In this document: one piece after another, positions 3,501-63,831 of the stretch | How the letters are laid out: the number at the start of each line of letters is the position of its first letter | How positions within the stretch are numbered: the first letter of the stretch is position 1 | NCBI GenBank assembly: GCA_964016885.1 | Contig: OZ024753.1 | Span: 9,796,001 to 9,860,000, forward strand | Source of the DNA: Eledone cirrhosa | Lineage: Eukaryota | DNA length: 64,000 nt | Direction: 5' to 3' | Made by a program: the position numbers and the translations under genes | Notes under the pieces: generated by a model | Told to the model about the DNA's origin: nothing | Databases searched by the model: none | Seen by the model: only the letters and a program-made list of their open reading frames with translations

Positions 3501-3860
3501 CACCTAATGTGCCCCCTCCATACACATATGTTTATCATGACTCATATACTATTCACTTTCCTGACATTTGTATATGATTCTATGTACTATACATGCACCT
3601 TTGACGAGGTGTACTGCACCTGAGCACTTTACACAATAATTTCATTATTATTATTTACTGAAAACTAACGAGTCTAATCTAACTGCCCTCTTGAGAGAGT
3701 ACCACCATCTGTTGTTGACAATGGCCCCTGTCAAGTGCTGTTTAACTAAAGTGCTAATCCGTCTACTCTAGGCTTTGCATGTCAGTAACGACAAGTTCAG
3801 CTTCCAGTAGCCGGGTCCTTCTCTATGGGTTCTATCAAGGTTGACCATGCAGGTCGAGCG
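548..3860 (-). mobile_element. 5'-truncated, frameshifted L1/Tx1-clade non-LTR retrotransposon (ORF2 RT + zf-RVT, 3' UTR), interrupted by a CR1 fragment
   Basis: Minus-strand frames carry GPGYWKLNLSLL (~3790-3820), KSPGLDGLPYELY, LRPITLLNTKLQILAKVLAKRL, EQSKAFDRVDH, RQRCPLSSLLYV, YADD and C-terminal CPRC...ETVAHAFIHFP. Split over ORFs 2882-3241, 2511-3035, 2092-2526 and 784-2046. Confidence 0.9.
3322..3654 (+). mobile_element. CR1/L2-type LINE 3' end nested in the Tx1 element
   Basis: NTRGHAHKVRKQ...RKHFFTLRVAEAWNKLP is the typical CR1 ORF2 C-terminus. It ends in a (TTA)n tail, and Tx1 coding sequence resumes on both sides. Confidence 0.8.
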
Positions 3861-7285: not shown

Positions 7286-7495
7286 TGAAAAGAGTCAGGA
7301 CCGGCGTCTGAGCTCCGGCCGTTTCGACAGCTAAATCCGAACAGTTCGGATGTAGCTGTCGAAACGGCCGGAGCTCACCCGTCGAGCTCATGACTCTTTT
7401 CATATTACCCACTCTACTACCCTAAGTATCGAGTACCCTGGTGCCTTATGGTCCACCTCTGGTGCGTTATGGTCCACATCTTCTTTCTTTTATAT
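7286..7495 (+). mobile_element. Short fold-back retroelement, family P (palindrome + unique 3' tail)
   Basis: Palindrome 7286-7402 centred on GACAGCTAAATCCGAAC/GTTCGGATGTAGCTGTC, then GAAA CGG..CCG TC. The tail ATTACCCACTCTACTACCCTAAGTA..TTATGGTCCA is shared with 52315-52504 and 61031-61224. Confidence 0.75.
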
Positions 7496-17299: not shown

Positions 17300-18492
17300 A
17301 TGGTGCTGCCGCAGAAGAGGAGGCTAGGTACAATGCCAGTGACGACCATAATGGTGATTAGATTAGAGATCATATCGATGATAAAGAATTTAATTTTCTT
17401 CTGTTTGTCATAGCAGCCTTTGTGATGGAACACAGAATCTGTTGATGTTCAAGTTGAAAGTAGAGAGAGTTGCTCACGTCGTTTCAGAGTGCAAGTACAT
17501 AGAAAAGGTCAGACATGGTATGGTGGCTACCATTGTTACACTGGAGCTTGTGTAAACTGTATGGATCGCCATGTGTAGAACACAATCTACAAACATGGTG
17601 CCAGCATGCACCATTATCACCACAAACATCATCAACAACAACAACACCACAAACAACAACAACAACACCACCACCACCATCACCAACAACAACAACACCA
17701 CCACCACCACAAGCAACACCACCAACAACAACCACCACCACCAACACCACCACAAGCACAAACAACAACACTACTGCCACCACCAACACCACCACTACCA
17801 AGACCCCCACCAACACCACCACCACCACCACCACCAGCACAAACAACAACAACACTACTGCCACCACCAACACCACCACTACCAACACCCCCACCAACAC
17901 CACCACCACCAGCACAAACAACAACAACACTACTGCCACCACCAACACCACCACTACCAACACCAACACCACCACCACCAGCACAAACAACAACAACACT
18001 ACTGCCACCACCAACACCACCACTACCAACACCCCCCACCAACACCACCACCACCAGCACCAGCACAAACAACAACAACACTACTGCCACCACCACTACT
18101 AACACCCCCACCAACACCAACACCACAATCAACATCATCAACACCAACACCAACACTAACATCACCACCAACACCACCACCGTCACCACAAGCACAACAA
18201 CGACAACACTACTGCCACCACCAACACCACCACTACCAACACCACCACCAACACCACCACCACCACAAGTACAACAACAACAACACTACTGCCACCACCA
18301 ACACCCCCACCAACACCACCACCACCACCACCACCACAATCAACACCACCAACACCAACACTAACATCACCACCAACAACACTACCGCCACCACAAGCAC
18401 AACAACGACAACAACACCATAACTAACCACCACAATCAACACCATCAACACCACCACCATCACTACCGCCAACACAAGCCCCAGCAGCAGCA
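17000..18492. repeat. (GGT/GTA)n then (CAC/CAA)n trinucleotide low-complexity region
   Basis: Read directly; includes a ~60-bp higher-order repeat ACAAACAACAACACTACTGCCACCACCAACACC. Confidence 0.85.
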
Positions 18493-21400
18493 CCAAGGAG
18501 GTGGGGTGTTGTAGGAAAAGCCACTGTCAACCAGGGAGGTGGGGTGTTGTAGGAAAAGCCACTGTCAACCAGGGAGGTGGGGTGTTGTAGGAAAAGCCAC
18601 TGTCAACCAGGGAGGTGGGGTGTTGTAGGAAAAGCCACTGTCTACCAAGGAGGTGGGGTGTTGTAGGAAAAGCCACTGTCAACCAGGGAGGTGGGGTGTT
18701 GTAGGAAAAGCCACTGTCAACCAGGGAGGTGGGGTGTTGTAGGAAAAGCCACTGTCTACCAAGGAGGTGGGGTGTTGTAGGAAAAGCCACTGTCAACCAG
18801 GGAGGTGGGGTGTTGTAGGAAAAGCCACTGTCAACCAGGGAGGTGGGGTGTTGTAGGAAAAGCCACTGTCTACCAAGGAGGTGGGGTGTTGTAGGAAAAG
18901 CCACTGTCAACCAGGGAGGTGGGGTGTTGTAGGAAAAGCCACTGTCAACCAAGGAGGTGGGGTGTTGTAGGAAAAGCCACCGTCAACCAGGGAGGTGGGG
19001 TGTTGTAGGAAAAGCCACTGTCAACCAAGGAGGTGGGGTGTTGTAGGAAAAGCCACCGTCAACCAAGGAGGTGGGGTGTTGTAGGAAAAGCCACTGTCAA
19101 CCAAGGAGGTGGGGTGTTGTAGGAAAAGCCACTGTCAACCAGGGAGGTGGGGTGTTGTAGGAAAAGCCACTGTCAACCAGGGAGGTGGGGTGTTGTAGGA
19201 AAAGCCACTGTCAACCAGGGAGGTGGGGTGTTGTAGGAAAAGCCACTGTCAACCAGGGAGGTGGGGGTGTTGTAGGAAAAGCCACTGTCTACCAAGGAGG
19301 TGGGGTGTTGTAGGAAAAGCCACTGTCAACCAGGGAGGTGGGGTGTTGTAGGAAAAGCCACTGTCAACCAGGGAGGTGGGGTGTTGTAGGAAAAGCCACT
19401 GTCAACCAGGGAGGTGGGGTGTTGTAGGAAAAGCCACTGTCAACCAGGGAGGTGGGGTGTTGTAGGAAAAGCCACTGTCAACCAGGGAGGTGGGGGTGTT
19501 GTAGGAAAAGCCACTGTCTACCAAGGAGGTGGGGTGTTGTAGGAAAAGCCACTGTCAACCAGGGAGGTGGGGTGTTGTAGGAAAAGCCACTGTCAACCAG
19601 GGAGGTGGGGTGTTGTAGGAAAAGCCACTGTCAACCAGGGAGGTGGGGTGTTGTAGGAAAAGCCACTGTCAACCAGGGAGGTGGGGTGTTGTAGGAAAAG
19701 CCACTGTCAACCAGGGAGGTGGGGGTGTTGTAGGAAAAGCCACTGTCTACCAAGGAGGTGGGGTGTTGTAGGAAAAGCCACTGTCAACCAGGGAGGTGGG
19801 GTGTTGTAGGAAAAGCCACTGTCAACCAGGGAGGTGGGGTGTTGTAGGAAAAGCCACTGTCAACCAGGGAGGTGGGGTGTTGTAGGAAAAGCCACTGTCA
19901 ACCAGGGAGGTGGGGGTGTTGTAGGAAAAGCCACTGTCTACCAAGGAGGTGGGGTGTTGTAGGAAAAGCCACTGTCAACCAGGGAGGTGGGGTGTTGTAG
20001 GAAAAGCCACTGTCTACCAAGGAGGTGGGGTGTTGTAGGAAAAGCCACTGTCAACCAGGGAGGTGGGGTGTTGTAGGAAAAGCCACCGTCAACCAGGGAG
20101 GTGGGGTGTTGTAGGAAAAGCCACTGTCTACCAAGGAGGTGGGGTGTTGTAGGAAAAGCCACTGTCTACCAAGGAGGTGGGGTGTTGTAGGAAAAGCCAC
20201 TGTCAACCAGGGAGGTGGGGTGTTGTAGGAAAAGCCACCGTCAACCAGGGAGGTGGGGTGTTGTAGGAAAAGCCACTGTCTACCAAGGAGGTGGGGTGTT
20301 GTAGGAAAAGCCACTGTCAACCAGGGAGGTGGGGTATTGTAGGAAAAGCCACTGTCAACCAGGGAGGTGGGGTGTTGTAGGAAAAGCCACCGTCAACCAG
20401 GGAGGTGGGGTGTTGTAGGAAAAGCCACTGTCAACCAGGGAGGTGGGGTGTTGTAGGAAAAGCCACTGTCAACCAGGGAGGTGGGGTGTTGTAGGAAAAG
20501 CCACTGTCAACCAGGGAGGTGGGGTGTTGTAGGAAAAGCCACCGTCAACCAGGGAGGTGGGGTGTTGTAGGAAAAGCCACTGTCAACCAGGGAGGTGGGG
20601 TGTTGTAGGAAAAGCCACTGTCAACCAGGGAGGTGGGGTGTTGTAGGAAAAGCCACTGTCAACCAGGGAGGTGGGGTGTTGTAGGAAAAGCCACCGTCAA
20701 CCAGGGAGGTGGGGTGTTGTAGGAAAAGCCACTGTCAACCAGGGAGGTGGGGTGTTGTAGGAAAAGCCACCGTCAACCAGGGAGGTGGGGTGTTGTAGGA
20801 AAAGCCACTGTCAACCAGGGAGGTGGGGTGTTGTAGGAAAAGCCACTGTCTACCAAGGAGGTGGGGTGTTGTAGGAAAAGCCACTGTCAACCAGGGAGGT
20901 GGGGTGTTGTAGGAAAAGCCACTGTCAACCAGGGAGGTGGGGTGTTGTAGGAAAAGCCACTGTCTACCAAGGAGGTGGGGTGTTGTAGGAAAAGCCACTG
21001 TCAACCAGGGAGGTGGGGTGTTGTAGGAAAAGCCACTGTCTACCAGGGAGGTGGGGTGTTGTAGGAAAAGCCACTGTCTACCAAGGAGGTGGGGTGTTGT
21101 AGGAAAAGCCACTGTCAACCAAGGAGGTGGGGTGTTGTAGGAAAAGCCACTGTCAACCAGGGAGGTGGGGTGTTGTAGGAAAAGCCACTGTCTACCAAGG
21201 AGGTGGGGTGTTGTAGGAAAAGCCACTGTCAACCAGGGAGGTGGGGTGTTGTAGGAAAAGCCACTGTCTACCAGGGAGGTGGGGTGTTGTAGGAAAAGCC
21301 ACTGTCTACCAAGGAGGTGGGGTGTTGTAGGAAAAGCCACTGTCAACCAAGGAGGTGGGGTGTTGTAGGAAAAGCCACTGTCAACCAGGGAGGTGGGGTG

Positions 21401-24400
21401 TTGTAGGAAAAGCCACTGTCTACCAAGGAGGTGGGGTGTTGTAGGAAAAGCCACTGTCAACCAGGGAGGTGGGGTGTTGTAGGAAAAGCCACTGTCTACC
21501 AGGGAGGTGGGGTGTTGTAGGAAAAGCCACTGTCAACCAAGGAGGTGGGGTGTTGTAGGAAAAGCCACTGTCAACCAGGGAGGTGGGGTGTTGTAGGAAA
21601 AGCCACTGTCTACCAAGGAGGTGGGGTGTTGTAGGAAAAGCCACTGTCAACCAGGGAGGTGGGGTGTTGTAGGAAAAGCCACTGTCTACCAGGGAGGTGG
21701 GGTGTTGTAGGAAAAGCCACTGTCTACCAAGGAGGTGGGGTGTTGTAGGAAAAGCCACTGTCTACCAAGGAGGTGGGGTGTTGTAGGAAAAGCCACTGTC
21801 AACCAGGGAGGTGGGGTGTTGTAGGAAAAGCCACTGTCTACCAGGGAGGTGGGGTGTTGTAGGAAAAGCCACTGTCAACCAAGGAGGTGGGGTGTTGTAG
21901 GAAAAGCCACTGTCAACCAGGGAGGTGGGGTGTTGTAGGAAAAGCCACTGTCTACCAAGGAGGTGGGGTGTTGTAGGAAAAGCCACTGTCAACCAGGGAG
22001 GTGGGGTGTTGTAGGAAAAGCCACTGTCTACCAGGGAGGTGGGGTGTTGTAGGAAAAGCCACTGTCTACCAAGGAGGTGGGGTGTTGTAGGAAAAGCCAC
22101 TGTCTACCAAGGAGGTGGGGTGTTGTAGGAAAAGCCACTGTCAACCAGGGAGGTGGGGTGTTGTAGGAAAAGCCACTGTCTACCAGGGAGGTGGGGTGTT
22201 GTAGGAAAAGCCACTGTCTACCAAGGAGGTGGGGTGTTGTAGGAAAAGCCACTGTCTACCAAGGAGGTGGGGTGTTGTAGGAAAAGCCACTGTCAACCAG
22301 GGAGGTGGGGTGTTGTAGGAAAAGCCACTGTCTACCAGGGAGGTGGGGTGTTGTAGGAAAAGCCACTGTCAACCAAGGAGGTGGGGTGTTGTAGGAAAAG
22401 CCACTGTCAACCAGGGAGGTGGGGTGTTGTAGGAAAAGCCACTGTCTACCAAGGAGGTGGGGTGTTGTAGGAAAAGCCACTGTCAACCAGGGAGGTGGGG
22501 TGTTGTAGGAAAAGCCACTGTCTACCAGGGAGGTGGGGTGTTGTAGGAAAAGCCACTGTCTACCAAGGAGGTGGGGTGTTGTAGGAAAAGCCACTGTCTA
22601 CCAAGGAGGTGGGGTGTTGTAGGAAAAGCCACTGTCAACCAGGGAGGTGGGGTGTTGTAGGAAAAGCCACTGTCAACCAGGGAGGTGGGGTGTTGTAGGA
22701 AAAGCCACTGTCTACCAAGGAGGTGGGGTGTTGTAGGAAAAGCCACTGTCAACCAAGGAGGTGGGGTGTTGTAGGAAAAGCCACTGTCAACCAGGGAGGT
22801 GGGGTGTTGTAGGAAAAGCCACTGTCAACCAGGGAGGTGGGGTGTTGTAGGAAAAGCCACTGTCAACCAGGGAGGTGGGGTGTTGTAGGAAAAGCCACTG
22901 TCAACCAGGGAGGTGGGGTGTTGTAGGAAAAGCCACTGTCAACCAGGGAGGTGGGGTGTTGTAGGAAAAGCCACTGTCAACCAGGGAGGTGGGGTGTTGT
23001 AGGAAAAGCCACTGTCAACCAAGGAGGTGGGGTGTTGTAGGAAAAGCCACTGTCAACCAGGGAGGTGGGGTGTTGTAGGAAAAGCCACTGTCTACCAAGG
23101 AGGTGGGGTGTTGTAGGAAAAGCCACTGTCAACCAAGGAGGTGGGGTGTTGTAGGAAAAGCCACTGTCAACCAAGGAGGTGGGGTGTTGTAGGAAAAGCC
23201 ACTGTCTACCAGGGAGGTGGGGTGTTGTAGGAAAAGCCACTGTCAACCAAGGAGGTGGGGTGTTGTAGGAAAAGCCACTGTCAACCAAGGAGGTGGGGTG
23301 TTGTAGGAAAAGCCACTGTCTACCAGGGAGGTGGGGTGTTGTAGGAAAAGCCACTGTCTACCAGGGAGGTGGGGTGTTGTAGGAAAAGCCACTGTCTACC
23401 AGGGAGGTGGGGTGTTGTAGGAAAAGCCACTGTCTACCAGGGAGGTGGGGTGTTGTAGGAAAAGCCACTGTCAACCAGGGAGGTGGGGTGTTGTAGGAAA
23501 AGCCACTGTCTACCAGGGAGGTGGGGTGTTGTAGGAAAAGCCACTGTCAACCAGGGAGGTGGGGTGTTGTAGGAAAAGCCACTGTCAACCAGGGAGGTGG
23601 GGTGTTGTAGGAAAAGCCACTGTCAACCAGGGAGGTGGGGTGTTGTAGGAAAAGCCACCGTCAACCAGGGAGGTGGGGTGTTGTAGGAAAAGCCACCGTC
23701 AACCAGGGAGGTGGGGTGTTGTAGGAAAAGCCACTGTCAACCAGGGAGGTGGGGTGTTGTAGGAAAAGCCACTGTCAACCAGGGAGGTGGGGTGTTGTAG
23801 GAAAAGCCACTGTCTACCAGGGAGGTGGGGTGTTGTAGGAAAAGCCACTGTCTACCAGGGAGGTGGGGTGTTGTAGGAAAAGCCACTGTCAACCAGGGAG
23901 GTGGGGTGTTGTAGGAAAAGCCACTGTCAACCAGGGAGGTGGGGTGTTGTAGGAAAAGCCACTGTCAACCAGGGAGGTGGGGTGTTGTAGGAAAAGCCAC
24001 CGTCAACCAGGGAGGTGGGGTGTTGTAGGAAAAGCCACCGTCAACCAGGGAGGTGGGGTGTTGTAGGAAAAGCCACTGTCAACCAGGGAGGTGGGGTGTT
24101 GTAGGAAAAGCCACTGTCAACCAGGGAGGTGGGGTGTTGTAGGAAAAGCCACTGTCTACCAGGGAGGTGGGGTGTTGTAGGAAAAGCCACTGTCTACCAG
24201 GGAGGTGGGGTGTTGTAGGAAAAGCCACTGTCAACCAGGGAGGTGGGGTGTTGTAGGAAAAGCCACTGTCAACCAGGGAGGTGGGGTGTTGTAGGAAAAG
24301 CCACTGTCAACCAGGGAGGTGGGGTGTTGTAGGAAAAGCCACCGTCAACCAGGGAGGTGGGGTGTTGTAGGAAAAGCCACTGTCTACCAAGGAGGTGGGG

Positions 24401-24940
24401 TGTTGTAGGAAAAGCCACTGTCAACCAGGGAGGTGGGGTGTTGTAGGAAAAGCCACTGTCTACCAAGGAGGTGGGGTGTTGTAGGAAAAGCCACTGTCAA
24501 CCAGGGAGGTGGGGTGTTGTAGGAAAAGCCACTGTCTACCAAGGAGGTGGGGTGTTGTAGGAAAAGCCACCGTCAACCAGGGAGGTGGGGTGTTGTAGGA
24601 AAAGCCACTGTCAACCAGGGAGGTGGGGTGTTGTAGGAAAAGCCACTGTCAACCAAGGAGGTGGGGTGTTGTAGGAAAAGCCACTGTCAACCAGGGAGGT
24701 GGGGTGTTGTAGGAAAAGCCACTGTCAACCAGGGAGGTGGGGTATTGTAGGAAAAGCCACTGTCAACCAGGGAGGTGGGGTGTTGTAGGAAAAGCCACTG
24801 TCAACCAGGGAGGTGGGGTGTTGTAGGAAAAGCCACTGTCAACCAGGGAGGTGGGGTGTTGTAGGAAAAGCCACTGTCAACCAAGGAGGTGGGGTGTTGT
24901 AGGAAAAGCCACTGTCAACCAGGGAGGTGGGGTATTGTAG
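18493..24940. repeat. 38-bp G-rich minisatellite, ~170 copies (CCAGGGAGGTGGGGTGTTGTAGGAAAAGCCACTGTCAA)
   Basis: Uninterrupted tandem units without spacers. Variants TCA/TCT, CCAG/CCAA, CACT/CACC and occasional G5. Confidence 0.97.
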
Positions 24941-25075
24941 GATCTCAGCTCTCATTCTCTCCTTCGGAAGATATCCGCTGTGTTCGGATCTAGAGGGTGG
25001 GCTCCATCTGGTTTAAAATACCCCCAAGAAACACCATATGTCACTACGGCACCTCTACGACCCCCATCAAGAGTT
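24941..25075 (+). mobile_element. Fragment of the SINE 3' extension seen at 27580-27720
   Basis: GGTTTAAAATACCCCCAAGAAACACCATATGTCACTACGGCACCTCTACGAC is similar to GGTTTTAAATGACCAAGAAACGCCGTATGTCAATATGGCGCCTCTACGAC. Confidence 0.65.
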
Positions 25076-51800: not shown

Positions 51801-52314
51801 TTACTAATAGCCTCGCTACTGTGGCGAGCTGAATATACTTCGGCTTCTTAAAAAGAATAACATGAGAGATATACAATATATTTCGAAGGATAGTGCTTCA
51901 TTGCCCGACAAAATTCATTCAGGAACGAGCAAGAAGAACTATAAATATATTTTATATACTTTTATTTTGTTTTAAAAAATTATTCAGCATATTTAAGTTG
52001 AAAATCAAATTTCGTTTGATGTTAAAAGTTACAAAGCTAACTATTTACGAGTCTCATAAAAATATTCTCGTTCTAACGATTGTCAAATTACATTAGAATT
52101 TAAGTTTTAAAACTTATTTAAAATATTATAAAACAACTTACTTGGTTTTGTTTCAAAACATTCATTTCTTATCTGTTTATGTAATTACCTCAGCTAGCTA
52201 TATTGAGTTTTTGTTTTAATGCACAGACGAAGTCACGTGATGAACCTCAACCAATCAAATTGAATATAGTTAATATAGCAATTTGAGCCATGATCTCTAT
52301 ATATGAGATTTATA

Positions 52315-52504
52315 GAAGAAAGTATGACCCCGACGGCAGAGCTCAAGCCGTTTCGACGGCTATTTCTGGACTGAAATAGCCGTCGAAACAGCTTGAGCTC
52401 TGCCGTCGGGGTCATACTTTCTTCTATTACCCACTCTACTACCCTAAGTATTGAGTACTCTGGTGCGTTATGGTCCATCTGGTTCCTTACCACAACTCCT
52501 TCGT
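52315..52504 (+). mobile_element. Family P fold-back element with 15-bp TSD
   Basis: Palindrome 52312-52427 plus tail; TATATGAGATTTATA at 52300-52314 and 52505-52519. Confidence 0.85.
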
Positions 52505-52659
52505 TATATGAGATTTATATATATACATATATACAAATCCAGGGAGTGTAACGCGGAGTTACTGTAGGTTTACCCGGGTGAGCACTCGATGTTTAGGTTC
52601 ACGTATGTATCGAGGTATCGAGCTTCAAAAAGAAAAGTTAAACGGCCACCTGGAAGAAA

Positions 52660-61030: not shown

Positions 61031-61032
<2 letters not shown>

Positions 61033-61224
61033 CAAAGGAAATGTGGTAAGGAACCAGGTGGACCATAACGCACCAGAGTATTCAATACTTAGAGTAGTAC
61101 AGTGGGAAATAGGAAAAAGTATGACCCCGACAGCAGAGCTCAAGCCGTTTCGACGGCTATTTCAGTCCAGAAATAGCCGTCGAAACGGCTTGACCTCTGC
61201 CGTCGGGGTCATACTTTTTCCTAT
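61031..61224 (-). mobile_element. Family P fold-back element between (TA)n tracts
   Basis: Reverse complement of 52315-52504; palindrome 61109-61224. Confidence 0.85.
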
Positions 61225-63536: not shown

Positions 63537-63609
<73 letters not shown>

Positions 63610-63655
63610 AAATAAAATAAATAAGTCAAATGTTTAAAATTTGGCTTCGTTTATT

Positions 63656-63710
63656 ACTGCTATATATATTTCGGTGATAGCCATCTTTGGCTGTGACCTC
63701 TTCGGGCAGT
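63656..63710 (-). ncRNA. Hammerhead ribozyme-like motif with U4>C
   Basis: Minus strand ACTGC-CCGAAGA-GGTCACAGCCA-AAGA-TGGCTATCACC-GAAA-TATATA-TA-GCAGT. Perfect stem I, 9/11 stem II. Confidence 0.65.
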
Positions 63711-63773
63711 CCGAATTAGTGTGGTAGAGACGAGTACACATGTTGTTGAGGTGTATAACTTTGTCAATACTCT

Positions 63774-63831
<58 letters not shown>

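Follow-up and report, generated by a model that had tools for sequence, protein, structure and literature searches.

The window analysed here, a 64,000-nucleotide stretch of the Eledone cirrhosa genome, carries a 190-bp insertion at 52315-52504, flanked by an exact 15-bp target-site duplication (TSD) whose two plus-strand copies (52300-52314 and 52505-52519) are identical and form a repeat that cannot be extended; the insertion that an earlier note on this DNA had named family P is real. We number the element from an initiator-like A located 18 nt before the hammerhead GAAA (+1), so that the C of the GUC triplet is +41. A tail-less inverted pLTR arm on the minus strand (52315-52372; +1 at 52372, +58 at 52315) is joined head to head to a tailed pLTR arm on the plus strand (52373-52504), which runs from +7 to +138 through the 3' strand of stem II, the GAAA (52385-52388), stem III, the GTC triplet (52405-52407), the 3' strand of stem I and an 80-nt tail (52425-52504). 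Ahead of the tail, 52315-52424 forms a hairpin with one arm mismatch and a 6-nt unpaired centre. The GAAA, stem III, GTC triplet and GGGG all lie where the earlier note had placed them, and the predicted hammerhead scissile bond (+41/+42) falls at 52407/52408 on the plus strand, by the core numbering of PMC4209133 (here and below, papers are cited for the parts of their text available to us). At both 3' ends the unit stops immediately ahead of an element TAT, a match to the (TA)n target; the last 3 nt of the left TSD overlap the TAT at +59 to +61 on the other strand.

The unit retains only the 3' half of the ribozyme. What had been described as a palindrome centred on a long stem II is the 3' strand of that stem paired with its own mirror image, and the 5' strand and loop insert of the parent (~30-40 nt) are missing. 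The possibility that the perfect hairpin represents the parent's stem II was dropped after parents with the true 5' strand and loop had been found.

Two further units in the window share this layout, as had been claimed: a sister unit at 61031-61224 (minus strand), which lies in (TA)n, is 93% identical and has the same +1/+7 junction, and a 77% identical unit at 7286-7495 (plus strand), which belongs to a diverged subfamily (hereafter the 7k subfamily) and whose arms end at +2 and +1. Two tail-less, internally deleted 7k-subfamily relatives face each other across (TA)n at 33503-33634 (strand undefined), forming a perfect tail-to-tail hairpin that resembles an inverted duplication. Across the 3.0-Gb genome, four queries returned 100, 3811, 2995 and 1899 first-look candidates, amounting to thousands of candidate copies, nearly all within (TA)n. 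TSDs were surveyed in 8 candidates, of which 3 look clean (13, 14 and 15 bp) and the others are unreadable inside (TA)n. Identity as a MITE, a DNA transposon, was rejected on the tail outside the repeat, the varying centres, the 13-15-bp TSDs and the RT-encoding parent described below. Non-LTR retrozymes were likewise rejected, as the units are inverted and lack the 5' core, and are not direct tandem repeats of whole hammerheads.

Other elements populate the window. A tail-less pLTR arm of a second PLE (Penelope-like element) family, with a minimal hammerhead and a short palindromic stem III, lies at 63572-63777 (minus strand); this family has 1222 first-look candidates in the genome, also forms head-to-head units, uses two alternative 3' ends, and has 5' ends that cluster at a short palindromic, initiator-like site. 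PLE ORF remnants are found at 36857-38625 (minus strand, 43-45% identical to the family P parent ORF) and 32300-32620 (plus strand, 32%), and a long array of a 38-bp tandem repeat, with at least 169 copies, spans approximately 18400-25000. An Rfam search of the window gave only chance miRNA-type matches among the matches listed (150 of 450).

The parent element and its putative hammerhead motif

One copy with an unusually long centre (L035) led us to 15 longer copies that carry the upstream pLTR and run on into the end of an RT/GIY-YIG-type ORF. An intact 717-aa ORF, starting at +232, was found in 3,531-bp tandem units (L209/L210) that agree at 3530 of 3531 positions, and a protein search of the genome returned many uninterrupted frames of it. 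Reading the ORF by eye, we identified what we take to be an RT-type YRDD motif, a Cys linker and a YIG motif. Its closest homolog (P0001) carries Pfam GIY-YIG, and a Pfam search with the 717-aa ORF itself gave no match. The pLTR precedes the ORF at many loci, and pLTRs also occur in tandem, as in the 3,531-bp units. An inverted 5'-truncated copy with a tail on one end characterizes all 8 long insertions with both ends visible (13 fetched) and 127 of 133 short units, with two tails in 4 and none in 2, the short-unit queries having required at least one tail and therefore favouring tailed units. Membership of family P in the EN+ PLEs is near certain, and the 190-bp hairpin is one of thousands of head-to-head stump insertions of such an element. 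The region G000:C1:437198000-437216000 (L209/L210), together with many of the protein-search matches, represents a subfamily that is very young, its 717-aa ORFs intact and its tandem arrays near-identical; recent activity of the subfamily is likely.

The parent bears out the proposed origin of the unit: a Penelope pLTR carrying a putative type I hammerhead motif. The pLTR contains, in order, stem I, the core U3-U-G-A-N-A8-A, stem II with its ~30-40-nt insert, GAAA, stem III, GUC and stem I. The earlier note had suggested looking for a parent with CCCC-CTGANGA linked to a Penelope ORF; the CCCC, an upstream core and the ORF are all present, but the core is mostly of the U3-A8 type and not CUGANGA. 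A search for the canonical CUGANGA form missed the parent for this reason, yielding 11 matches, none with the core directly before stem II; a search for a closely spaced core in the 7k subfamily gave 1 match. A core-plus-loop search in the same subfamily returned 328 matches versus 0 in the control, and the first 100 of these are mostly U3-A8, with 5 C3-G8 and 6 U3-G8 (hand count; here and below, hand counts cover the first listed rows, contigs C1-C3). For the subfamily of the 52315-52504 unit, the parent search gave 2 matches and also 2 in the control; L168 suits as parent by sequence, but is 5'-truncated.

All core positions and the three stems are present by inspection, and the pairs hold in 93.5% of cells across 18 parents. 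Covariation over these parents was not above shuffles (68/500 and 44/500), Rfam gave no hammerhead match on the parent pLTR, and its MFE folds differ. A U3-A8 variant has been reported for Schistosoma PLEs (PMC4209133), and a literature search on C3U/G8A returned nothing relevant. Indirect support for the putative hammerhead motif comes from the arm ends at its predicted cut site, described next.

Arm ends near the initiator-like A and at the predicted cut

Flanks of 267 loci supplied 77 incidental arms, of which 45 begin between -4 and +10, 5 between -40 and -5, and 5 pass -41; none begins at +42, marking arms with that end as a minor class. The A at +1 is part of a T-x-A-G-T core that resembles the initiator consensus, is invariant in the 18 parents despite a varying adjoining insert, and keeps the same distance from GAAA across subfamilies with different loops. 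A transcript starting at this motif, which lies inside loop II, would begin with half a ribozyme. An internal Inr/DPE promoter has been described for the Penelope element of D. virilis (PMC2377424).

In the parent, position -1 is T or C. Among the first 100 of 710 matches with a purine at this position (hand count), G outnumbers A by 75 to 25, 39 of the 75 Gs have no explanation from the mirror arm, and there are 7 occurrences of (TA)n-G-AGT compared with 1-2 of (TA)n-A-AGT. An extra G can arise when a reverse transcriptase copies the cap, and this base bias makes a copied cap the likely source of the non-parental G at -1; a literature search on cap-derived G returned nothing relevant. Of 57 solo arms adjoining (TA)n (hand count), 15 are ambiguous because the parental TA at -1/+1 matches the target, 11 reach -2/-3, 7 carry G, a different base precedes +1 in 3, and 21 begin between +2 and +4. 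A C often precedes the solo arms that begin at +2, perhaps as a remnant of the second cDNA. Many arms in the subfamily of the 52315-52504 unit extend to -4 to -9. Long arms that enter the ORF behave differently: 0 of 28 start between -10 and +10, the nearest being at +15 and +42, with some of these bounds set by alignment limits. A simple capped monomer is thus not the template of full-length copies, which need multimeric, circular or jumped templates.

A second position emerged from L193, in which the base directly following GUC is the first of an ORF-bearing arm. A directed search then revealed shorter palindromes centred near +42, comprising 273 units by pattern. In the first 50 of these (hand count), 25 contain a non-parental insert, 18 are blunt or ambiguous, and 7 pass the site; in the 25 insert-bearing units, 45 of 50 arm ends lie at +42, 4 at +43 and 1 at +41, and the added bases are mostly A/T, not G. 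With a control pattern open to both sides (776 matches), the furthest arm in the first 100 (hand count) ends at +42 in 42 cases (34 unambiguously), at +41 in 1, at +40 or beyond in 19, and at +43 or shorter in 24 (~7 at +43), with 14 blunt or ambiguous. The arm ends have a sharp edge at the predicted scissile bond, as counted in sister subfamilies ~85-90% identical to the 52315-52504 unit. Ends at +42 also occur in copies whose tail variant matches the subfamily without the local mini-hairpin. Some units are mixed, their arms ending at +42 on one side and at +1 or +2 on the other; they were seen in the L054 flank and among the matches with a purine at -1, and suggest either two templates or cleavage between two primings.

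Assembly of the units

If the arms chose their 3' ends independently, the proportions among the 77 incidental arms (39 tail-less, 30 tailed, 8 in between) would yield far more two-tailed units than were found. The arms also differ in their 5' reach. Across the 127 short units the tail-less arm extends farther in 61, the tailed arm in 31, and the two are equal in 35, and the tail-less arm is the longer one in 6 of the 8 long insertions. Fold-back of a tail-primed cDNA demands a longer tailed arm and cannot yield this asymmetry.

The centres are varied, with 107 different ones among 114 units, supporting the view that the arms are rebuilt at each insertion. Concordance between arms was assessed in 126 parsed units from query-selected loci: variants are mirrored at 43 of 310 sites, against a permutation mean of 9.6 and maximum of 32 (80 of the 126 units, same modal class). 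The earlier note had described differences between loci as mirrored in both arms. This holds at the subfamily level, but the C>T cited for its locus is mirrored in only 1 of 15 carriers (among 70 common-type units, a query-selected sample). Varied centres and shared arm variants together indicate that the two arms arise at insertion, both from one kind of template. An apparent anti-correlation of the arms at one site was an artefact of query selection. Two direct head-to-head chimeras join family P to the second PLE family (L031/L247, G000:C1:55904499-55904850; L248, C4:28702000-28702400), a structure that adjacent insertions plus a deletion could mimic. At L032, a family P arm is joined to a fragment of a third PLE's endonuclease in inverted orientation.

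We favour a model, to which we assign a probability of roughly 65% based on these sequence patterns, in which both target strands prime cDNAs that run off the 5' end of the RNA and are then joined. The enzyme would nick (TA)n at two sites ~13-15 bp apart, and each target 3' end would anneal to a UAU in the RNA, at +59 for the tail-less arm and +139 for the tailed arm. Ends at +1 would correspond to the capped transcription start, the extra G being the copied cap, and ends at +42 to RNA cut in vivo by the U3-A8 hammerhead. Joining of the two cDNA ends may involve microhomology, a blunt junction or a short stretch of snap-back synthesis, and templates that are multimeric, circular or jumped would account for the long arms. 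For a PLE protein studied in vitro, nicking and extension of both strands have been described, as have two RT start sites bounding the tail (PMC11167929).

An inverted copy could also form if one cDNA folded back, at stem II or another mini-hairpin, and copied itself, with the tail removed from one end during resolution. Both steps have been proposed for PLEs, as self-priming on an antisense template at junction palindromes (PMC3846280) and as EN-mediated tail resolution (PMC8557442), and fold-back would account for the subfamily and rare variants shared between arms. Several centres contain short snap-back-type inserts copied from the neighbouring arm (L158, L148, L161, L163, L006, L142), and some fit fold-back at a GAC mini-hairpin (5 of the first 50 of the 273 units; ~10 of the first 100 of the 776 matches), the trimming of whose loops would also yield +42 ends. 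The route is nevertheless unlikely as the origin of the units. The earlier note had envisaged a cDNA that copies stem II and folds back there, but the arms end on the 3' side of the stem II loop, close to the initiator-like A, and the true 5' strand and loop of stem II are never included in short units. The longer tail-less arms, the occurrence of the same centre in both orientations, and the two-family chimeras also speak against it. The short snap-back inserts show a contribution of fold-back to the join, but not as its cause.

Dual priming might instead operate with +1 and +42 marking stalls of the RT at RNA structure, followed by joins through TA and CG microhomology, and not RNA ends. The parent does have TA at -1/+1 and CG at +41/+42, the ends are spread from -9 to +10 with long arms passing +1, and +42 sits at the three-way junction. 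Stalling sits poorly, however, with a non-parental G that is specific to -1, as opposed to A/T at +42, and with insert-bearing joins, which use no microhomology and have 45 ends at +42 and a single one at +41. An RT stalled at stem III would moreover be expected to copy the unpaired C41, and the initiator-like motif keeps its distance from GAAA despite different loops. We consider this reading improbable. Less probable still is that palindromic masters of a non-autonomous hairpin element, SINE-, retrozyme- or MITE-like, are copied whole; the earlier note had named a non-autonomous hairpin retroelement as its alternative. Thousands of copies, a nearly constant centre in the 7k sample and the recurrence of some centres in several subfamilies agree with such an element, but the 7k sample was selected by its query and the centres overall are too diverse; furthermore, the same layout extends without a break to ORF-bearing insertions of several kb, readable TSDs measure 13-15 bp, and the ribozyme core is absent from short units.

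Building on the two-strand priming model, we tentatively propose a broader reading, which we hold at somewhat below even odds. Stump palindromes would record the 5' ends of template RNA, namely the capped start in loop II and the ribozyme cut, and integration of PLEs would require priming at two sites and on both strands. The repeat from +1 to the cut might act like the R region of an LTR, letting a strong-stop-like cDNA jump across to the RNA 3' end, with the stumps representing failed jumps. The stumps give base-exact predictions for such RNAs and their priming: a capped 5' terminus at +1, a 5'-OH terminus at +42, two UAU priming sites, and one tail in each unit. If true, the +42 class would constitute in vivo evidence that an animal PLE hammerhead with a U3-A8 core cleaves, and mapping of palindrome centres could read RNA ends without RNA data in any PLE-rich genome. 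The young subfamily, with many intact ORFs in the same genome, suits in vitro work.

Comparison with known systems

In LINE-1 twin priming, both target strands prime cDNA to produce an inversion, with a different part of the RNA copied into each cDNA, whereas in family P one and the same 5'-proximal segment is copied into both arms, starting at fixed sites. Family P units resemble non-LTR retrozymes in being short, pLTR-related and hammerhead-linked (PMC7229834; bioRxiv 10.64898/2026.07.22.740005), but retrozymes are direct tandem repeats with whole ribozymes, whereas the family P units are inverted and coreless. The parental motif shares with metazoan PLE minimal hammerheads, including the U3-A8 form of Schistosoma Cercyon (PMC4209133), the type I topology, a short stem I, a palindromic loop III, a long stem II that has unpaired nucleotides at its base, and a U3-A8 core that is C3-G8 in some copies, and differs from those described there in a stem III of 4-5 bp and a ~30-40-nt loop II insert that holds the initiator-like motif.

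The Poseidon element PAc of Anolis (PMC11167929) is similar in its two RT starts bounding the tail, the nicking and extension of both strands, and its AT-rich target. In family P the start sites lie at a TAT that matches the target, whereas PAc starts are reported to be non-homologous to the cleaved DNA, and, unlike in PAc, the family P pLTR tail lies ~90 nt upstream of the ATG (PMC11167929). Genomic copies of family P end at the predicted hammerhead cut, whereas in the RNA-seq data described for Anolis no reads ended at the cut site (PMC11167929).

The closest counterparts are EN+ PLE insertion units (PMC3846280; PMC8557442). The earlier note knew of no description of the family P architecture, but its inverted arm, single tail and junction palindrome correspond to the pattern published in those two papers. 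Both have arms joined head to head, one tailed end, insertion into (TA)n, partial tandems, an RT followed by a GIY-YIG-type region at the C terminus, and a linker rich in Cys, as described for Neptune/Nematis; the tail measures 30-40 nt in the published units and 80 nt in family P. How the tandem and inverted insertions of PLEs are assembled, and what role the hammerhead plays, are stated as open questions (PMC8557442; PMC11167929). A literature search spanning main texts, with a minority of subscription journals, found no PLE junctions mapped to a cap or cut site, and the supplements of the cited papers may hold similar end maps. Not seen in that search was the placement of junctions at a likely cap site in loop II and at the predicted cut, in combination with arms whose asymmetry speaks for two primings. 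In PMC3846280 the palindromes are attributed to self-priming; the arm asymmetry of family P fits two primings better, and its junctions, unlike those described for the published EN+ PLE units, map to two defined positions in the element.
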